64,000 nucleotides of DNA from NCBI GenBank assembly GCA_951406725.2, contig OX597825.1:69378001-69442000 (forward strand), given 5' to 3'. The stretch comes from Octopus vulgaris. Its lineage: Eukaryota. Shown here one piece after another: positions 1 to 51,798 of this stretch; within the stretch, counting starts at the first letter, position 1, and every line of letters starts with the position of its first letter. Both the position numbers and the translations under genes were made by a program. The notes below the pieces were generated by a model. That model was given only the letters and a program-made list of their open reading frames with translations. It ran no database searches and had not been told where the DNA came from.

Positions 1-126
1 AAGCTTATCTGTGAACTTTTATGCTTTTTATGCTTTTTTCTTCTGTCTCTTAATCTTATTATTTTACTCCTGTCCTCTATGTAGTCATTTCATTAATCTA
101 TACCCTTCTCCTTTTCCCTATTTGTT

Positions 127-180
127 TCTCTGATGACGGAATATTCCATAATCTGAGATATCCCAGAAACACCTGTTAGA
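127..180 (+). ncRNA. Type I hammerhead ribozyme motif in a Penelope-like 3' fragment (1-402) ending in (TA)n
   Basis: tct-CTGATGA-cggaatat...atatccca-GAAAC-acct-GTT-aga: intact core, stem I tct/aga, stem II gga(a)tat/atatcc, short near-palindromic stem III. Confidence 0.65.
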
Positions 181-399
181 CTTTGAATTTTTTTTCCAAT
201 AATAATAACGTATATGACTTGAAATGTCTGCCTCGCCTAAACATTTGTTGTCCTTTTTAACAATCATATGCCCGCTTTATCAGAAATCTGCAATGACTCA
301 TAACTACCGTCTTGGTTACGACCTAGGAACCCCAGTAATCCGTTACAGCACTTACCTAGCGTACCTAAACGCTTAGATCACCTAGGAACTAAACTCCCA

Positions 400-746
<347 letters not shown>

Positions 747-1056
747 CGCACACACACATATATATAAATACACACATTCACGCACATTTACATATATACA
801 CATGTTAAAGAAATACATGAAAAGATAAATCAAAATGACTTTTAAAAATGTAGCACAAATTAATAAAAAGTATACACAAAAGAAAATATAACGCTGCTGT
901 CTATACAACAGGGGTAACAAGAGAAATTATGAGACGTATGTATTACATAATACAGTATTTCGCAGTTTTGTTATCTATTGATATTACGTGGAATTCTCGT
1001 TGTATTAAGCTTTATAGTATTTCGTTTTGTAATATGGGTTTCTGAAACCGCAATAT

Positions 1057-1441
1057 GGAAGCACTCCGTCGGTTACGACGACGAGGGTTCCGGTTGATCT
1101 GATCAACGGAACAGCCTGCTCGTAAAATTAACGTGTAAGTGGCTGAGCACTCCACAGACACGTGTACCCTTAACGTAGTTCTCGGGGATATTCAGCGTGA
1201 CACAGAGAGTGATAAGGCCGGTCCTTTGAAATACAAGGTACAACAGAAACAGGAAGTAAGAGTGAGAGAAAGTTGTGGTGAAAGAGTACAGCAGGGATCA
1301 CCACCATCCCCTGCCGGAGCTTCGTGGAGCTTTTAGGTGTTTTCGCTCAATAAACACTCACAACGCCCGGTCTGGGAGTCGAAACCGCGATCCTACGACC
1401 GCGAGTCCGCTGCCCTAACCACTTGGCCATTGCACCTCCAC
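1057..1441 (-). mobile_element. tRNA-derived SINE (family C), full length with TSD
   Basis: Minus-strand head tggaggtgcaatggccaagtggttagggcagcggactcgcgg...gtttcgactccc (A/B boxes); TSD aaccgcaatat at 1046-1056 and 1442-1452. Confidence 0.9.
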
Positions 1442-2259
1442 AACCGCAATATACTATAGCATTTCTTTCATTGTTTCCATATCAAGGCGTTATAATTGAA
1501 AAAAGACTTTATTGATAAAACCTACAAACACACTCACCAGTTGTTGCTTGTCTGTATTTCTGTACTCTTTATTCTTTCGAAACAATTGATAGTTGTTTCC
1601 GTTCCCAATCATAGTTTTCGTTTTCACAATCTTTAGCTTTCTCGAAGGACGGTTAACGATATTGATGAAACCACAATGTTTTACATCTAAATTCTAGCAA
1701 CATAAATTCAAATACTTTTTTTTTTGTCTTTTATTACTTACATCTTTTATTAATTGAACTGAGGCTGTGTGGTGTGTGTGTGGGGGTCACCACCTCCAAG
1801 GGTTTTACCCGAACAAAGAGATACCAGTTCGTATCTCTTAAGCCTGATATTTATTCAATCGGCCTCTTACGCTGAAACGATAACTTGCAGGCGCAAAAGC
1901 AAGTCTACACCGTTTTCAAGTGTTATATATATATATGTATGTATGTATATATACCATCAATTTCGACCTGCAAAGATACCCGTGACTGTAACATCTACAC
2001 CAGCAGCTATGGTATCATCAGCAGTCAAGACAACCGAAAATAAACTAACATCACATCTTGCAGCAAGAAAAACAGTAATGACCCCCTCCTCCAAAAGAAG
2101 AAGAACAAAAACATATTGCTGCCTCCCAGAAAATTCGTTGAAAGGCAGGTCAATGTGGCAACGATTGCCCGAGGGAACTGTTCTGTGCTAAGTATGCGCC
2201 TAGTGATGACGACTGGGCACTTACCCCAGTGGTTATCTCGACTGTGGTTTTGTGGAGTT

Positions 2260-2290
2260 ATCATCATCGTCGTCGTCGTCGTCGTCGTCG

Positions 2291-2328
<38 letters not shown>

Positions 2329-2360
2329 GTTATCATCAACATCATCATCGTTATTATCAT
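2260..2360. repeat. (CGT)n/(CAT)n trinucleotide microsatellite
   Basis: Direct reading. Confidence 0.95.
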
Positions 2361-3459
2361 TTCCTTTTTTTCTTTTCACCGTGTTATTCTTATTACTTAT
2401 TTCACAGTCGTCTATTATCTGTTCAAATGATATTCTTAGTCTAAATTAAAAGGAAAGAACTTCTGTTAGATTCAGTCCGCGACCACCAACCAGCTTTCTA
2501 CGTGATAATACGAAGCTTCATGAAAACTATAAGAAAACTTTCGCAAGATAATAGCAATGGTATTGCTTTCTAAATTATTGTATATCAGATCTTTTATTGC
2601 GAAGAAGCGAACCGATGCTAAAGTATTGCAAATATCTATTATTAATACAAATAGAATTCCCAAACCAATTAAGTCTCTGGCTTTTCATCAAATGATACTT
2701 TTAAGCAGTAATGACTGGTACTGGCATGATTTAATTTAACACATACGTAACGTCTTTCGTCCGTTGTGAAAGTCGCTTTCGTGTTAGTTAATTTCATTTG
2801 ATTTTTTTCACACTCGGGTAATCCATAATTGTGTTACACGACACATGCGTCTGTCTCATGTGTAAAAGAGTGCCTGACTGTGGTAAAGTACCTAGACAAA
2901 GAAATGCACGGAAGAAATTATTTATTTCTATAAGTGCGAAATTATTAATATCATTTCGCCTAAAGTGTAGCCGTTCAGAGAATACACCAAATTTTCAATT
3001 TTGTTATGCAATTGTTAAGAAAACTAGTGAATGAAAGTATTCTAGTCATTTTGAAGATTTCTAAGTTTGCCTAAGATTTCTAAGTTTGCATTAGTCTACG
3101 TTTTTCGAAGACAGTGGGTATGATGAAGGAGATAGATTTCACTGGGTTTCAAGGAGTGACATAAAAGAGGATCAACCAAGTAATCCACGAATATTATACA
3201 AATCTATACAACGAGCTACTATGCTTCATCTTTAAAAAAATCTTGTTAATATAACTAAAAGATGTATAAATGGATACAACAGAAATACGTGTAATTATTG
3301 TTTATGTATGCATATTACAATATGCAGACAGTTTGAAATGAAGAGAGCGCCGATAGAAATGTAAGCTTTGTATTATAATAGATTCCTTGGGAAGACACAT
3401 TTGTAAAATGAAAGAAATATGAAAGATAAACGACATGTAAATGTCGTTTATCTTTTCCA

Positions 3460-3566
3460 AACGGAAAAAAAAGCCTGAGAAGGTAAATAAGGAATATTTT
3501 AGTTGCGAACGGAAAAAAAAGCCTGAGAAGGTAAATAAGGAATATTTTAGTTGCGAACGGAAAAAA
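3460..3566 (+). repeat. 48-bp tandem duplication (about 2.2 copies)
   Basis: Unit aacggaaaaaaaagcctgagaaggtaaataaggaatattttagttgcg starts at 3460, 3508 and (partial) 3556. Confidence 0.9.
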
Positions 3567-3811
3567 TAACTAGAATATCGCTGAGAATGTAAACAACGAA
3601 TAGAATATAAATGCAAACCAAAATGATGAAACCGAATGCAACAAAACGCCCGTAAACCTTTCCAGCAGTGATGGACAAATGACGGAGTTGAAAATACAAG
3701 TAATAATAAAATCAGCGCTTCTCAACCATTTTTTAACCTATGGGCGTCTTTGATTCCTGTTTTAATCGGCTGGACCTCCCTAGGCATTCGTTGTTTAAAC
3801 AATCCTATTCT

Positions 3812-4165
3812 AGGCGCAGGAGTGGCTGTGTGGTGAATAGCTTGCTTACCAATCACATGGTTCCGGGTTCAGGCTCACTGCGTGACGCCTTACGCAAATG
3901 TCTTCTACAACAGCTTCGGGCCAACCAGAACCTTGCGAGTGGATTTGGTAGACGGAAACTGAAAGAAGCCCATCGGATATATATATGTTTGTGTGTCTGT
4001 TTATTCCCCTACCATCACCTGTCAACCGATGTTGGTGTGCTTACGTCCCCGTAACATAGCGGTTCGGCAAAAGACCGCTAGAATAAGTACTAGGCTTACA
4101 AAGAAAAAGTCCTGGGGTCGATTTGTTCGACTAAAGGCAGTGCTCCAGTATGACTGAAACAAATA
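3812..4165 (+). mobile_element. tRNA-derived SINE family B (CORE-like central region, internal TA/TG microsatellite)
   Basis: aggcgcaggagtggctgtgtgg...ggttccgggttcag...ggatttggtagacggaaactgaaagaagccc...gactgaaac tail; matches copies at 8.7k, 17.6k, 18.5k. Confidence 0.85.
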
Positions 4166-4404
4166 TAAGAATATTTTAATAATTAAATATTAGGAATTGC
4201 ATTTAACAAAGGGTTAAAATAGTTTGTGCATTGCCGATAAATTCTAACGACAAAATCCCCCAAGGGCCATACAGACCCCAGTGGCGAATCACCGATAGGA
4301 ATGAATGGAAATATATGAAAAGATTTAAGATAAGCAATTCCAGAAATAATTCTTTCAGCTATAGGCTGAAGTTTTATGGGAGGGCTTGTCAAGTACATTG
4401 ATCA

Positions 4405-4550
4405 TCGCGTTCAGCCGGTATTTATTTTATCGACCTCAAAGAGTTAAATAGCGAAGTCGACCTCGGTAACATTTGAACGCGGAACGTAAAAACGGAAGGA
4501 ATGCCACCAAGCATTTCGTCCGGCGCAGTAACGATTCTCAGGTTTTCCTC
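4405..4550 (-). mobile_element. Degraded SINE family A (Deu/Nin-like core)
   Basis: Reverse complement of aaattccgccgaggtcgactttgcctttcatcc...gtcgataaaataa. Confidence 0.7.
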
Positions 4551-5842
4551 CTTCATAAGGAGAAATAATAAAATGGACGATTTGACGGTGGGTATAAAGG
4601 AAGCATTAAGTACACTAGATCTTGTTATAGACAAATGAAAAACGAGCCTAGGCATAAAACTCTACGATAAAATAACAATAATCATAGATTTCCTGAAAAC
4701 GAACACAAGCATTAAAATCAAGTTAAAGAAAATTATACATACATTTACAAAAATAAACACACTCGTATTCTCATACACCGCAACTAGTGCAGTTACAAAA
4801 TAAACTTGACTCTCCATAAGCTCTACACAAATCTACACAAATAGGAACATCAAAAGCCAACCACGCAGCATGTAAGACAAGTAAACAGAGGAAATACAAA
4901 ATGAGGAAAAATGAAAAAAAAATTTCACTGCCCTTTGAAAACCTGCATTCTCGCACGTGACGCGCATGCACACACTCACACACACTTGACATCGTAATTA
5001 AATGATATCATTGAAGAATACTTCAGAATTATAATAATAATAATAATAGAAAGAGTTAACTGAAATTAATGAGTGTTCGGAGCAAGAGATGCTCCTTAAC
5101 TCACTAGAATCTCGTTGTTATGAAAATCAATAACAGTTCATTAATGAATAACAAGCAGGTCGACTCTAGTTGAAAGTGATTCTATCAAGAACTCGATAAA
5201 AACACGAAGAGAACGAAACGAGAACTGGGAAAGAATAATGTACCCAGCGAAGGAATCACCACGGACGTGATTGTTTACAATAACAAACACAGCATCTGGG
5301 ATGCTATTTAGAATCAAAACAATTCAGGTGTAATATTTTTAAAAAAATCATTTATTCCTTTACTTTTTTCAGTCTTTGGACTATGGTCATGCTGGGGCAT
5401 CGCCTGGAAGGGTTTAGTTGAAGAAATCGAATCTAAGGCTTATTTTAAAGTGTAGTACTTCGATCGTTCATTGCCAACGGAGATGTTTAATAAGATATTG
5501 AATGGTTCACTCAAATGAAATCTACTTTTAATCCTCAACACCAAAGAAACATCAAACGTTAAAACTTTTCACCACCCATGGCATTCATTCCTATAACCTT
5601 CAAAAGTTTAATTGCCATAATATCACACAGGATAAATGTACATGTCGAAGAAAATATATTGCATTTCAGAGAAACAGAAACGATACTCAAAATTTCCATT
5701 GCTTTAAAGATAAATTTACTCATCCACAAAGATATAACAGAAGAGTGTAGTAATTTAAACATTAGGACATTCGACAGTATTTTTAACCAGTGGATTTACA
5801 AATATCAGCAATGTATAAACTAGTATCAATATTAGATTCAAA

Positions 5843-6285
5843 TTTTGGGACAACGCCAGCAATTTCGTGTCAGTGGTTAGACCGATTATAAGGTCTCTTT
5901 GCTCGACTGATACTTATTTTATCGACTCCGAAAGGATTATAGGTAAAGTCGATCTCGGCGACAGTTAAACTCAGAACGTACAAACGGACAAAATGCTACT
6001 AGCATTTTGCCCGGCGTGCTAACGATTCTGCCATCTCACCGCCTTAACTATATTAATTAACCAAAAGGTTAACATTAGCACACCAGGTGAAATGCGTAGC
6101 CGTATTTCGTCTGCCGTTACGTTCTGGGTTCAAATTCCACCGAGGTCGACTTTGCCTTTCATCCTTTCGGGGTCGATTAAATAAGTACCAGTTACACACT
6201 GGGGTCGATATAATCGACTTACTCCGTGTGTCTGTCCTTGTTCGTACCATCTGTGTTTAGCCCCATGTGGGTAGTAAAGAAATAT
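5843..6285. mobile_element. Two SINE family A copies: minus (5843-6045) and plus (6070-6285)
   Basis: gttcaaattccaccgaggtcgactttgcctttcatcctttcggggtcgattaaataagtaccag and its degraded reverse complement. Confidence 0.8.
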
Positions 6286-6775
6286 ATATTAATAAACCAA
6301 TATTAATCAACCTCATCTCCACTAGAAGAGGATATATTCCAAGGATTGTATACCTTCATATTCAGTTTACATAAATAAACAGCGCTTCCTTTAAAGTGTT
6401 GACGTAAATAGACGCCGAACCGTATATTCAGCCGACACTATTGCAATCGGTGCAGCCAAGCTGCCTCATAGACAACCATTGTCATGGAGGTTATAGTTAC
6501 TTTAGAACAACAGAGAACGTTTTAAGAACATTCCCTGTTCGTGGTGTTCAGATTATACATACACGCTACTCAGTGCCACTTCATAAATATTTGAAAAGAA
6601 AGATTGGTAACGTTAACCAGTATAGGAGTTAATTGTTTCATACGGGAATTAAAGCTGTGAAAAGCCGTTAACGAAATCCTCGATCACAGCTTCATACGCA
6701 CACGCGTGCGACGAGGCACACACATATATCTAAATATGCATATACATGTATGCACATGCACATATGTTTGTGAAG

Positions 6776-6806
<31 letters not shown>

Positions 6807-6823
6807 CTCATATATATTCTTCT

Positions 6824-6868
6824 ACAGTATGGTGAAAGCGTGTAAGCCGAAACGTTTCTAGTCACTGT
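6824..6868 (+). ncRNA. Decayed type I hammerhead motif next to a short TA run
   Basis: acagt-ATGGTGA-aagcgtgtaagcc-GAAAC-gtttcta-GTC-actgt: perfect stem I, GAAAC and GUC intact, 5' core mutated. Confidence 0.5.
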
Positions 6869-6977
6869 TAACATTTCCCTCATAAATACTAAATCATTCA
6901 AATAATGTCAAATGAGTTTAAAATAAATATCTATAAAGCAAACCTCAACACATACATATATATACTTGTGTCTGTGC

Positions 6978-7023
<46 letters not shown>

Positions 7024-7095
7024 AAGAGAGAGAGAGAGAGAGAGAGATGTATAAATATATATACATATATGCACATATATTTATACATCTCTCTC

Positions 7096-7131
<36 letters not shown>

Positions 7132-7934
7132 ATATATATACACAGACAGACAGACACACACACACACACATATATATATGCATGCATACGTACATACATA
7201 CATACATATGGATGTCTTGTTGTTTTTGGTAGTTTGTATATAATCCTTGATGAACTTCTTTCGAAACTTAATTCATAACGAACTCAAACTAATTTTCTCG
7301 GTATCAGTTTTGATTTCCTTGAAATTAGGTTATGTGTTTTGCTTGTCAGACTTACATCTAAATAACTTCAACCATGATCAATCATGATTAAGTCGGTGAG
7401 CGCGGATAAACTACTTTTCATGAAACACCACTCTTAAAATGGCGTCTATATCATTTGTTAACTCATTAAGCACGCCATATTCTCTTTTGATATTGGAAAT
7501 ATACAGCTGTTTTTTTTTTTCATGTTATACTTTTCAGTTAGTCGTTCGCCCAAAACTACTTGATACGTAAGTCATTATTATCTGTCAAATATAATCCGTG
7601 GATAATGTTATTGATATAAAGATCTTCTAGACAAATTTAGTAATGACTTTTTCTTCAGCTTAATTCAAATATTATCTTATCGTGTAATGGCCTTCGTAGT
7701 GGTAGGTCAAAAGGGTGAATGATGTGTCTTTGAGTTGAGAAGATATCGTATTTGCACTCGACCTGTTAGAAACAGCATGAAAATCTTCATTCTATACCCT
7801 GTACATATTGGATAAATGTCGTACCGGTCAGACTTTATCTGAAAAAAAACAAAACAAAATAAAATAAAATAAACAAAGCTAATTCAAATGACCCATGGTT
7901 AATATTCAATTTTTGATTATTGTCAGTAAGACTC

Positions 7935-12128: not shown

Positions 12129-12205
<77 letters not shown>

Positions 12206-12208
12206 TGC

Positions 12209-12257
12209 GCTTCCTGATGACTTCATTTGAATGAAACAGTTCTAGTCCTGTAGAAGC
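12209..12257 (+). ncRNA. Canonical type I hammerhead ribozyme in a ~137-bp insert (12206-12343) between (TA)n tracts
   Basis: gcttc-CTGATGA-cttcatttgaat-GAAAC-ag ttctagtc ct-GTA-gaagc: stem I gcttc/gaagc, stem II ttca/tgaa, stem III acag/ctgt, GUA cleavage triplet. Confidence 0.85.
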
Positions 12258-12340
12258 TCCTTCTATAAAATAAATTAACTTACTCTGCTATGTATTGAGT
12301 ACCTTAGTTACTGTGGTTAACCCCGACTCAACCCGGGACC

Positions 12341-12423
<83 letters not shown>

Positions 12424-31823: not shown

Positions 31824-32240
31824 AAGGCGGCGAGCTGGCAGAAACGTTAGCACGCCGGGCGAAATGCTTTGCGGTATTTCGTCTGTCGTTACGTTCTGAG
31901 TTCAAATTCCGCCGAGGTTGACTTTGCCTTTCATCCTTTCGGTGACGATAAATTAAGTACCAGTTACGCACTGGGGTCGATATAATCGACTTAATCCGTT
32001 TGTCTGTCCTTGTTTGTCCTCCCTGTGTTTAGCCCCTTGTGGGTAGTAAAGAAATAGGTATTTCGTCTGGCGTTACGTTCTGAGTTCAAATTCCGCCGAG
32101 GTTGACTTTGCCTTTCATCCTTTCGGTGTCGATAAATAAAGTACCAGTTTCGCACTGGGGTCGATGTAATCGGCTTAATCCCTTTGTATGTCCTTGTTTG
32201 CCCCCTCTATGTTTAGCCCCTTGTGGGCAGTTAAGAAATA
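31824..32240 (+). mobile_element. SINE family A dimer with 15-bp TSD, inserted into an RTE 3' region
   Basis: TSD tataaggttttgcaa at 31805-31819 and 32241-32255. Confidence 0.9.
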
Positions 32241-34613: not shown

Positions 34614-36076
34614 TGATTGATTGATTGATTCTAGTTTCAGCTTATGAGCTGTGGCCATGCTGGGGCACCGCCATTTGGTGTTGCTACTTGGTTTCACTTC
34701 ATGGAGGCTTTCTAGCAACTGCTATTTAGTGCATGAGAGAGTTCGATGCAGCTGCCCTCATCTGCCCCTCCTGCCGTGAAGTTGGTTCATCTGGGACACC
34801 TGACAGGAAGAGATCCAGCTTCATTTTAAAGACATCTGTATCCACCCCATGCAGGTCTCTCAGGTTCTTCGGGAGGATATTGAAGAGCTGTGGGCCTCGG
34901 AAGCCCAGGCTATCACAGAATCTTGTCCTACATCTTGATGGCAGGTTTGGAGTCCTAGGCACCACGCAGTGGCGCCCAGTTCTGGCATTTGCGTAACTCT
35001 CGATGCCAAAGTTCAGGACACTTCCCTCCAGGATCTTCCAGATGTATATTATGGCATATCTTTCCCGCCTACGCTCCAGGGAATATAATTTTAATCTCTT
35101 GAGTCTTTCCCAGTAGCTTACATTCTGCATAGAGGCTATCTTCTTTGTGTAGCTTCGTTGGATCGCCTCAAGTTCTGTGATCAACTTGACACTGGATGGT
35201 GACCATAGCTGAGAGCAATAGTCAAAGTGGCTTAGGACAAGTGTCTTCCAGAGGACCATCATGGTTTCTTGTTCTCTTGTTCTAAAGGTTCTAAGAATCC
35301 ATCCAGCCAGCCGTCTACATTTCATTGTCAGTTTAGCAACATGTACATGAAAGGTCGCGTCATCACTCATGTGAATACCAAGGTCACGCACTGATTGTGC
35401 CTCTGGGATTGCAATCCCTCCGGGTCCAGTGTATTCATTGGGTATTGCATTCAGTTTTGCATGCTGATAGTATAAAGCTTGAAACTTTCCAGCATTGAAC
35501 TGCATGCTATTCTTTTCAGCCCACTTGTATATTTCGTCCAGCTCACATTGCAGGTGTTTAGTGTCCTCAGGGTTCTGTATTGCCTGTGAGACTTTTGTAT
35601 CATCTGCATAACTTGTGATCGTGGCTCTCTGCGTGGCTGAGGGCATGTCTGAGAGGGCCATTATGAACAGTAGTGGTCCCAGAACAGTGCCCTGCGGAAC
35701 ACCGCTCACTATTTGTGTGTTAATGGAGGTGGCCCCATTGGCTACTACCACCTGACTTCTATCCTTCAGAAAGTCATGAAGCCATTCTCCCAGTTTTCCA
35801 ACTATGTTGAGATCACGCAGTTTGTGACATATCATTCCATGATCGACTTTATCAAAGGCCTTTGCAAAGTCGAGATATATCACTTCCACATTTGAGTGGT
35901 TGAGCAGCCGTTTCAGCACCCAGTCATAGTGTTGTAGGAGCTGAGTTAAACAGCTTCTCCCTGGTCGGAAACCATGTTGGGTGTCGGGCAGCAAGTCATT
36001 CTCTTCAAGGAAGGTGATCAGCTTCCTTCTGACTATTCGTTCCATGACCTTGCTGATGTGTGAGGTCAGAGAGGTC
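34611..36076 (-). mobile_element. Young 5'-truncated CR1-group LINE with (AATC)n tail, inserted in (TA)n
   Basis: Uninterrupted RT frame, 3' UTR with stem-loop, tail gattgattgatt on + strand, TA tracts on both sides. Confidence 0.92.
34726..36076 (-). CDS. LINE ORF2 fragment: reverse transcriptase plus C-terminus (5'-truncated)
   Basis: QHGFRPGRSC, YLDFAKAFDKVDH, GVPQGTVLGPLLF, YADDTK, VRDLG, LYSLERRRERY; the first ~22 aa of the ORF-track entry come from SINE/microsatellite sequence. Confidence 0.9.
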
Positions 36077-36099
36077 ATATATATATATATATATACATA

Positions 36100-36350
36100 C
36101 ACGTGACGTGCTTCTTTCAGTTTCCGTTTACCAAATCCATTCACAAGGCTTTGTTCGGACCGAGGCTATGATAGAAAACAGTTGGTCAAGGCACCACGCT
36201 GTGAGACGGAACCAGAAACCATGCCTTTGGTAATCAAGCCTTTTACCACACTGGAATTTTTGCAAGATATTAAACAGGTGTGGTCCTTTGATTTCCAAGG
36301 TATTGCAGTACCTGGTCCTTTCACTAGACGGGGTCTTAAACCCCCACGCA
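36100..36350 (-). mobile_element. SINE family B head (36100-36253) and an older fragment of the same CR1-group LINE (36254-36350)
   Basis: PSSERTRYCNTLEIKGPHLFNILQK aligns to PSRCRTRFCDSLGFRGPQLFNILPK of the 472-aa ORF. Confidence 0.75.
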
Positions 36351-48251: not shown

Positions 48252-48467
48252 ATCCTTTCTACTAAAGGCACAAGGCTTGAAGTTTTGGGGGAGGGGACTA
48301 GTCGATTACACCGACCCCAATGTTTCACTTGTATTTATTCTATCGACTCCGAGAGAATGAAAGGTGAAGTCGACCTCGGCAGAATTTGAACTCATAACGT
48401 AAAGACGGACGAAATCTTGCTGAGCATTTTGCCTGGCATGCTAAAGATTCTCTCGGCTCGCCACCTG
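48252..48467 (-). mobile_element. SINE family A
   Basis: ggcacaaggc...ggggagggactagtcgattaca...gtcgacctcggcagaatttgaactc. Confidence 0.85.
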
Positions 48468-48468
48468 A

Positions 48469-48515
<47 letters not shown>

Positions 48516-49479
48516 TAAAACATGAAGAAGAAGAAGAAGATGAAGAAACAACAAAAGCTATAAAACAAATGAAATCCAAACTAAAAATAGAACAGCAACG
48601 AACCATGATAAAACGATGGCAAGAAAAGCCCCTTCATGGTAAATACTGGACTAAACTAAACGCAAAAGAAATAGACAAAGAAAAATCCCAGCAATGGTTG
48701 AGAAGCTCAGGACTCAAAGCAGAAACAGAGGGATTTTTAATTGCAGCACAAGACCAAAGCCTCCCCACCAGAAATTACCAAAAACATGTAATGAAAAGAA
48801 ATATTACAAGTAACTGCAGAATATGTGGAGATGGACAAGAAACAATAAATCATATTATCTCTAGCTGCCCAGTCCTGGCTAAGAAGGAATATATTCACAG
48901 ACATGACAGAGTTGGAACCTACATACATTGGAAGCTATGCCAACATTATGGAATAACAACAGAAAAAAGATGGTATAGGCACACACCAGAAAAGGTCACA
49001 GAAAACGAGAAAGCAACCATACTCTGGGATATGCCGATACACACAGATAGATAAATTAAGGCCAACAGACCAGATATAGTTGTCAGAGATCATGAAGAAA
49101 AAAATGCTTTCTAATTGATGTATCAATACCGGCTGATGACAACGTGTCTCTAAAAGAAATGGAGAAACTCTGAAAATACAAAGACCTGGAAATAGAGGTA
49201 ACTAGAATGTGGAATCTGAAAACAGAAACAATTCCTATCATAGTAGGTGCATCAGGCATGATAAAAAATATTCAGACAAATACATAACAAAAACACCAGG
49301 ACTTACAAACACATATAACATACAGAAAATTGCACTACTAGGCACTGCACACATCCTACGCAGAACACTTTCCATACAATAACCATCAGAGCATCACAAC
49401 AAATCACAGCACATACCCAAGGCACACAGAGCTGTGCTCGGTAGTGAAGTGAAAGCACGCTATAAAAATAAAACTACTG
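48516..49479 (+). mobile_element. R4/Dong-type LINE 3' part inserted in (TAA)n
   Basis: WQEKPLHG, LKAETEGFLIAAQDQ, CCHC knuckle CRICGDGQETINHIISSC, RHD, NRPDIV...IDVSIP...EK..KYKDL restriction-like endonuclease; in-frame stops near 49052 and 49171; (TAA)n on both sides. Confidence 0.93.
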
Positions 49480-50987: not shown

Positions 50988-51759
50988 AATTAATTGTTAT
51001 CGCCATATTAATATGGCATTCTTATAGATATAAGAATAATCGCTGCCGCTGGCCAGCTCTATGAGGCCACCGCCATCAAGATAGCTATTGATACACGATC
51101 TGTATCCATTATAACCTTCGAACAAGGGAGGTCAGCCGCTTCACACTGCCAGTCCGACAGCTACAGACGCGTTTCGGGGTATTGCCCCTTGTCAATGTAG
51201 CGCAGTCAGACCCGCAGGTGTCGCCACTGACGTCTCTCTTCGAAGGTTTCTATTTACCTAGTTTCAGTGGAATACATCCACTTGTTTTCAATAATAGAAA
51301 TATTAAAATTACTAAGTCTCTATAAAAGAGATTACGGCAGCGTTTACTGGAAATTAATTGTTATCGCCATATTAATATCGCCATATTAATTTCTATTATT
51401 GAAAACAAGTGGATGTATTCCACTGAAACTAAGTAAATAGAAACCTTCGAACAAAGACGTCAGTGGCGAAACCTGCGGGTCTGACTGCGCTACATTGACA
51501 AGGGGCAATACCCCGAAACGCGTCTGTAGCTGTCGGACTGGCAGTGTGAAGCGGCTGACCTCCCTTGTTCGAAGGTTATAATGGATACAGATCGTGTATC
51601 AATAGCTATCTTGATGGCGGTGGCCTCATGGAGCTGACCAGCGGTAGCGATTATTCTTATACCTATAAGAATGCCATATTAATATGGCGATAACAATTAA
51701 TTTCCAGTAAACGCTGCCGTAATCTCTTTTATAGAGACTTAGTAATTTTAATATTTCTA
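50988..51759. mobile_element. Inverted pair of a circularly permuted 364-nt hammerhead-bearing monomer (retrozyme-like) within (TA)n
   Basis: Left arm repeats aattaattgttatcgccatattaat at 50988 and 51352; right arm repeats tttcta at 51390 and 51754 (both period 364); hammerheads at 51160-51201 (-) and 51489-51530 (+). Confidence 0.85.
51489..51530 (+). ncRNA. Type I hammerhead, U3-A8 core variant
   Basis: gctaca-TTGACAA-ggggcaatacccc-GAAAC-gc-GTC-tgtagc; stems I and II perfect, palindromic ACGCGT stem III. Confidence 0.8.

Positions 51760-51798
<39 letters not shown>

Follow-up and report, generated by a model that had tools for sequence, protein, structure and literature searches.

The short insert that lies between two long (TA)n tracts at positions 12206-12343 of the window, i.e., the whole stretch of 64,000 nucleotides of Octopus vulgaris DNA analysed here, raises the question of whether a hammerhead ribozyme followed by little more than a tail is a minimal stand-alone unit, or a piece of a larger element. 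The first reading was that of an earlier note on the same DNA. From the evidence assembled below, the insert is very probably the hammerhead plus 5'-UTR leader of a Hydra-clade Penelope-like element (PLE) lodged in (TA)n, likely as the cDNA of a capped and uncut transcript, whose reverse transcription would have been primed where the TA tract had been nicked, begun within the 5' UTR and proceeded to the cap. The features of the locus are the following:

12131-12205, no strand assigned: (TA)n target tract of the left flank, 37.5 units
12344-12420, no strand assigned: (TA)n target tract of the right flank, 38.5 units
12206-12343, plus strand: the insert (hammerhead and about 90 nt), between the two (TA)n tracts
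12207, plus strand: extra G, likely copied from a cap, and present in 47 of the 100 AT-flanked copies listed
12208, plus strand: putative +1 of the PLE transcript and hotspot of 5' ends, from match starts and TATA-box spacing
12209-12257, plus strand: type I hammerhead of the Hydra-PLE form, from a descriptor scan, with the layout given in PMC8557442 File S2
12250-12266, plus strand: competing hairpin GUAGAAG/CUUCUAU, from predicted pair probabilities
12261-12275, plus strand: first fixed insertion end and putative first start of reverse transcription, AT-rich and containing AATAAA, where 45 of 99 sampled matches end
12276-12343, plus strand: PLE 'tail', i.e., the 5' UTR between both insertion ends, carried by 54 of 99 sampled matches
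about 12342, plus strand: second fixed insertion end, with an identical junction in 42 of the 54 tail-bearing matches

The hammerhead is built from a 5-bp stem I (GCTTC at 12209-12213 paired with GAAGC at 12253-12257), the core stretches CTGATGA (12214-12220) and GAA (12233-12235), a stem II of 3 bp (TTC/GAA) with a 4-nt loop, and a stem III of 4 bp (ACAG at 12236-12239, CTGT at 12248-12251) with an 8-nt loop, the centre of which is palindromic (CUAG). Judged from the sequence, the cut at the GUA site would fall after A12252. This stem III, the cut position, the long TA tracts on both sides and the AATAAA of the tail (12269-12274) are all as the earlier note had described them. Its fully canonical core, in turn, holds for the bases themselves, C3, U4, G5, A6, G8, A9, G12, A13, A14, the A15.1-U16.1 pair and H17 being present, but not for the closure of helix II, where the window copy has a C12221.U12232 mismatch at position 10.1-11.1 instead of a G-C pair, on a stem of only 3 bp. 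A U.U occupies this position in 161 of 164 copies, and the C12221 variant occurs in 3 of the 164. Similarly, the terminal hairpin announced by the note exists as a CCCG/CGGG stem-loop with an AC-rich loop (12322-12337), but the region folds no better than its shuffles (z = +0.30). The AATAAA was rejected as a polyadenylation signal and is not marked as such because it falls on the first insertion end, which is AT-rich, and because full copies read on past it into the open reading frame. In the descriptor scan, the hammerhead is the sole type I match of the C3-G8 kind in the 64-kb window, 30 shuffled windows yielded no strict match, and the window contains no second copy of the insert; Rfam, run at gathering score over the whole window, returned no match.

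Other repeats are scattered through the window. A second, unrelated hammerhead family occupies 50988-51763, with cores at 51495 (plus strand) and 51195 (minus strand); it shows a U3-A8 core variant, a palindromic helix III and head-to-head arms of 314 nt (97%) between TA tracts, and part of its unit seems to be repeated in tandem, much like inserts of PLEs or retrozymes. At 31873-32240, a unit of 184 bp, which we take to resemble octopus SINEs, occurs twice in tandem. The open frames at 34726-36165 (minus strand, 479 aa) and 48398-49054 (plus strand, 218 aa) look, by their motifs, like fragments of LINE reverse transcriptases.

The genome searched for relatives of the insert comprises 2.8 Gb in 227 contigs. 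All 40 candidates scored in a DNA search were full-length matches of 93-100% identity, accompanied by 25 partial matches on the opposite strand directly upstream. Other genomic copies keeping the stems, on which the note had made its reading depend, abound: an exact 33-nt piece of the insert occurs 7,547 times, its reversed control not once. Across 164 copies the core columns are almost invariant, which is partly forced by the search pattern. The ends of the copies were surveyed in 99 of the first 100 matches listed, all of them located on a single contig (C1). The whole tail is present in 54 of these 99 matches, whereas 45 stop at about 12273-12275, in (TA)n, and the 3' end runs into a TA tract in 97. 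The 5' starts fall within 12205-12212 in 45 matches, 21 of them exactly at 12208, so that the sharp 5' boundary anticipated by the earlier note does exist; of the remaining matches, 21 have an internal start, 12 start upstream by at most 67 nt, and 21 extend beyond that. Of the 78 sampled matches that have their 5' end close by, 62 adjoin an inverted copy, both arms of an insertion being counted, and the head-to-head insert is accordingly the commonest form.

A fragment similar to PLE endonucleases was present in two long copies; when used as a protein query, it yielded 14,177 candidates, 150 of which were scored as matches, with 99-100% identity. One locus (L059) represents a complete unit, consisting of an inverted 5' arm, TATA box, hammerhead, tail, open reading frame, 3' region and a second pLTR. 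Its leader and the window insert share 92.5% identity, and an ATG located 48 nt after the end of the tail opens a frame of 712 aa. Within the subfamily of the window copy, 14 loci match the tail-end pattern, among which 5 continue into the open reading frame over at least 90 aa at 85-95% amino acid identity, 2 enter it for about 20 codons and 7 do not detectably do so. Since the tail runs on into the frame for the reverse transcriptase (RT) and the GIY-YIG domain in full copies, it corresponds to the 5' UTR of an autonomous element, and the reading of the insert as a minimal stand-alone unit has to be given up. Contigs from four presumed-RNA runs bridge the tail and the open reading frame, such contigs being uninformative on the start, end and level of transcripts.

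The 712-aa frame contains the motifs RWR, DKT, YRDD, CxCx5C (CNCHDKTTC), a GIY-YIG-like YK..YIG and CxxC..E..N..CxH (CDLC..E..N..CMH), with RWK instead of RWR in 5 of 6 aligned homologues. These homologues number 1,085 at E <= 0.001, the best listed sharing 37-53% identity and being almost all unnamed. Pfam scans gave no significant RT or GIY-YIG match for the 712-aa protein and no relevant match for the endonuclease fragment, and a PDB sequence search with the protein returned nothing; in 2 of 4 homologues scanned (P0001 and P0039), GIY-YIG scored above the Pfam cutoff. Read from the motifs, a single open reading frame combining RT and GIY-YIG endonuclease is linked to the repeat, as in EN+ PLEs, together with pLTR repeats, a 5'-truncated inverted copy, an optional tail and a hammerhead in the pLTR. 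The definition of the Hydra clade includes protein motifs and insertion in (TA)n (Craig et al. 2021, PMC8557442), and the octopus element has in common with the clade the RW[K/R] and DKT motifs, the CxCx5C linker, a C-terminal GIY-YIG endonuclease with CxxC and CxH around E and N, the lack of CCHH and the (TA)n target. From its motifs and its (TA)n insertion, the parent is classified as a probable Hydra-clade PLE. It departs from the trend, not a strict criterion, towards short length: Hydra elements are generally below 3 kb (PMC8557442), whereas the octopus element measures about 5.4 kb from +1, with a microsatellite-rich 3' region of about 3 kb between the stop codon and the 3' hammerhead in L059.

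In L059, this second hammerhead terminates in (TA)n, at the short insertion end. The DNA separating it from the stop codon (4510 to 1442 of the locus, minus strand) is mostly TA/TG microsatellite-like and common to L032-L035; an element with such a 3' region would bring its own target sequence along to new genomic sites. Many copies contain an open frame of exactly 225 aa, resulting from a common frameshift at 'WYNPP' (seen in L066, L068 and L069), and this frameshifted sub-lineage seems to be widely spread, presumably in trans. Another locus (L031; G000:C8:91476000-91485999, about 1-7650) consists of a tandem array of about 26 units, mostly of 271 nt, every unit comprising a TATA box, a hammerhead, a tail and the opening codons of the open reading frame; the array also has an inverted part. 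It is a retrozyme-like derivative of the PLE family of the window insert, of the kind of the non-LTR retrozymes, which are protein-free, hammerhead-bearing derivatives of PLEs (Li et al., bioRxiv 10.64898/2026.07.22.740005). In contrast, the insert has a single arm without tandem units and is a direct piece of the leader of the autonomous element; the retrozyme arrangement of tandem units, each with a type I hammerhead, is for this family absent from the window and was encountered elsewhere in the genome at L031 only.

The 5' boundary of the insert points to a transcription start. In 69 of the 71 copies keeping upstream DNA, TATAAAT (or CATAAAT) starts 29 nt before the equivalent of 12208, and this spacing is fixed while the spacer between the TATA box and +1 diverges between subfamilies. 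The +1 base is A in most copies and C in the sub-lineage of the window; G at -1 occurs in none of the 71. Genome-wide, an AT-only flank is joined directly at the hotspot in 128 copies, including the window insert, as compared with 7 and 20 at two control positions. Counted by hand in 100 listed of these 128 copies, a few rows of which are near-duplicates, G at the equivalent of 12207 reaches the 47 copies given above, whereas G one base earlier is found in 5 and the controls show none in 27. An untemplated 5' G is an accepted mark of a copied cap in L1 and SVA templates (PMC4859970). The G could also arise if the cDNA primed itself on stem I by a single nucleotide, because the next template base on that stem would give G as well; however, self-priming predicts GG forms, and GGA occurs once as opposed to 31 TGA among the listed AT-flanked hotspot junctions, and in 9 cases the G is followed by a +1 base that is C, T or G, a context in which stem I would fail to prime. 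On these two grounds a capped template is preferred, and the hotspot, the TATA spacing and the extra G together suggest that Pol II likely starts at the first base of stem I. A point to the contrary is that the promoter of Penelope from D. virilis is TATA-less (PMC2377424). No published account of this PLE family or of a cap-derived G in PLEs was found in the literature covered, which largely excludes subscription papers; the family may already be catalogued in Repbase or Dfam.

The same junctions bear on the possibility that the single-arm form of the window is a decayed head-to-head insert, the short inverted arm of which was lost through palindrome instability or TA slippage. Head-to-head inserts being the commonest form, the closest relatives that likewise begin with GCGC (L003, L004, L006 and L016) being palindromic, and one copy (L156) keeping a mere stub of the inverted arm, such a loss is conceivable, but the left junction, (TA)n-T-G-C-GCTTCC, retains no letters of an inverted arm and matches the G+1 class of the 128 direct junctions, which makes this history rather improbable. 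Either way, it is the history of the window copy that would change, and not its identity.

Whether the RNA that served as template had been cut can be approached from the cut site itself, which is intact and spanned in all sampled inserts. Beside AT-rich DNA, 3' ends at the cut site occur in 28 copies, several of which are internal deletions, and starts near the cut site with an AT flank in 55 copies, 31 of these being perfect fold-backs on the downstream hairpin, which could originate from cut RNA or from microhomology alone. A concentration of direct junctions with (TA)n was looked for at the cut site and not seen, with 7 junctions as compared with 9 at an arbitrary control site. Owing to the scarcity of ends at the cut site and to direct junctions no more frequent than at the control, cut RNA would be no more than a minor template. 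The anole PLE studied in vitro behaves likewise, in that its RT starts at two internal sites bounding the tail on unprocessed RNA (PMC11167929). A cut and re-ligated circular RNA read through its junction, with RT stalling at stem I to create the 5' ends, would leave an intact cut site in all copies as well; a model of this type has been proposed for PLEs (PMC4209133), and the 26-unit, 271-nt array of L031 would fit a circular or rolling template. However, a circle has no cap and leaves the extra G unexplained, as it does the fixed 29-nt spacing of TATAAAT despite a diverging spacer, and RT would be expected to stall when entering the structure, on its 3' side, and not after leaving it. We regard this origin as decidedly unlikely, and retain the capped, linear and uncut leader as the probable template.

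As to the activity of the ribozyme, folding predictions, which cover secondary structure and ignore Mg2+ and tertiary contacts, attribute to the hammerhead fold a share of 0.001 for 12206-12260, 0.0006 for 12200-12270, the construct suggested in the note, and 6e-5 for the whole insert. In relatives (L002/L004/L110) the share amounts to 0.054, about 50 times that of the window copy, which scores lowest, together with L010, among ten loci folded, because its C12221 allows a GACU/AGUC mispairing. The competing hairpin at 12250-12266, with pair probabilities of 0.89-0.94 in the 138-mer at 37 C, is predicted to mask the cut site together with the 3' strand of stem I, and its sequence is kept in most copies. 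The helix III strand is predicted to be far more stable as a two-molecule duplex (-12.8) than as its own hairpin (-1.4 kcal/mol). Metazoan PLE hammerheads are reported to cut weakly and as dimers (PMC4209133; PMC6765202), and that of the anole PLE cuts in vitro only when protein is added (PMC11167929). The claim that the insert is the best candidate in the window for monomeric self-cleavage keeps this much, that a stem III of 4 bp with an 8-nt loop can close sterically within one molecule, but the predicted share of the fold, from 6e-5 to 0.001, makes monomeric self-cleavage of the window copy doubtful. Devoid of an upstream TATA box, the stub would be transcribed only by read-through.

That the insert could be an independent minimal retrozyme or SINE, with a hammerhead cutting efficiently as a monomer and defining the unit, might seem to draw on its 8-nt loop over a 4-bp stem III (0-3 nt loops in the Hydra hammerheads listed in PMC8557442), on fungal PLE hammerheads with a large helix III that cut as monomers (PMC4209133) and on core columns nearly invariant in 164 copies, albeit partly by virtue of the search pattern, but it is very improbable in view of a tail that is the 5' UTR of an autonomous element, unit ends lying away from the cut site, the missing TATA box and a low predicted fold share without a G10.1-C11.1 pair.

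The leader of a Hydra-clade PLE also agrees with much of what is described for related systems. Hammerheads of the Hydra clade share with the insert the CUGAUGA-Y...U-GAA core with its Y.U closure and a 4-bp stem III, the acag/ctgt version of which recurs in Hydra-1_aMil, Penelope-1_NV, -1_SK and -2_SK; they differ by their loop III of 0-3 nt, the insert having 8 nt and a stem II of 3 bp (PMC8557442). Hydra-1_Obim, the sole octopus family listed there, differs from the present family in both hammerhead and protein, as compared by eye. The metazoan minimal PLE hammerheads (Cervera and de la Pena 2014, PMC4209133) resemble that of the insert in being of type I, with a 5-bp stem I, an extra base after A9 and a palindromic loop III centre, and in being mostly dispersed as truncated single motifs; in contrast, they possess a G10.1-C11.1 pair and a long helix II, with helix III nearly absent, where the insert family has a Y.U and helices II and III of 3 and 4 bp, respectively. 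In the Poseidon element PAc from Anolis (Frangieh et al. 2024, PMC11167929), two internal RT starts downstream of the hammerhead bound the tail as they seem to do in the octopus family, and the likeness extends to an AC-rich stem-loop near the second start, an AT-rich target and an unprocessed RNA template. However, the PAc hammerhead overlaps the start codon and its tail, 30-40 nt, is inside the open reading frame, whereas in the octopus element the hammerhead and a tail of about 67 nt are both located in the 5' UTR, and no cap-derived G was found reported for PAc in the accessible part of that paper.

Taken in sequence, the TATA box would direct Pol II to start transcribing at the first base of stem I, (TA)n would be nicked by the GIY-YIG domain, and RT, primed at the nick in the TA tract, would start at about +68 or about +135 and run to the end of the RNA, where the extra G would represent the copied m7G cap. 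The fixed 3' ends, the 5' hotspot under the TATA box and the extra G are the reasons for considering the insert as a likely cDNA running from the cap to the priming site on uncut RNA. Both RT start sites would usually be used, the two cDNAs joining head to head into palindromic inserts of about 205 bp; alternatively, the cDNA could jump to the upstream pLTR and the whole element would be copied. In the window copy, only the long arm would have been fixed, with the hammerhead as a passenger. The parent hammerhead is predicted to cut slowly, as a dimer or with the help of a protein, and to be inhibited by the downstream hairpin as soon as transcription has advanced by about 13 bases. A more detailed version, to which we give even weight for and against, takes the stubs as fixed 'strong-stop' cDNAs: with the TATA-directed start at stem I and the hairpin keeping the ribozyme off, RT would prime twice in the capped and uncut leader, and a C templated by the cap would aid the head-to-head template switch.

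This kind of element, its hammerhead and its targeting to (TA)n have been published already. To these the octopus family adds a very young and abundant Hydra-clade element with an intact frame of 712 aa, a candidate for in vitro work in a clade on which no biochemistry was found in the literature covered. Further additions are an extended 3' region rich in microsatellites, through which TA/TG tracts, the target of the element itself, would be spread in the genome, and genomic support for a capped, uncleaved RNA as template, which bears on the purpose of PLE hammerheads. If the strong-stop version of the mechanism is true, thousands of genomic junctions would record in vivo the link leading from internal initiation to the pLTR and the inverted repeats of PLEs.
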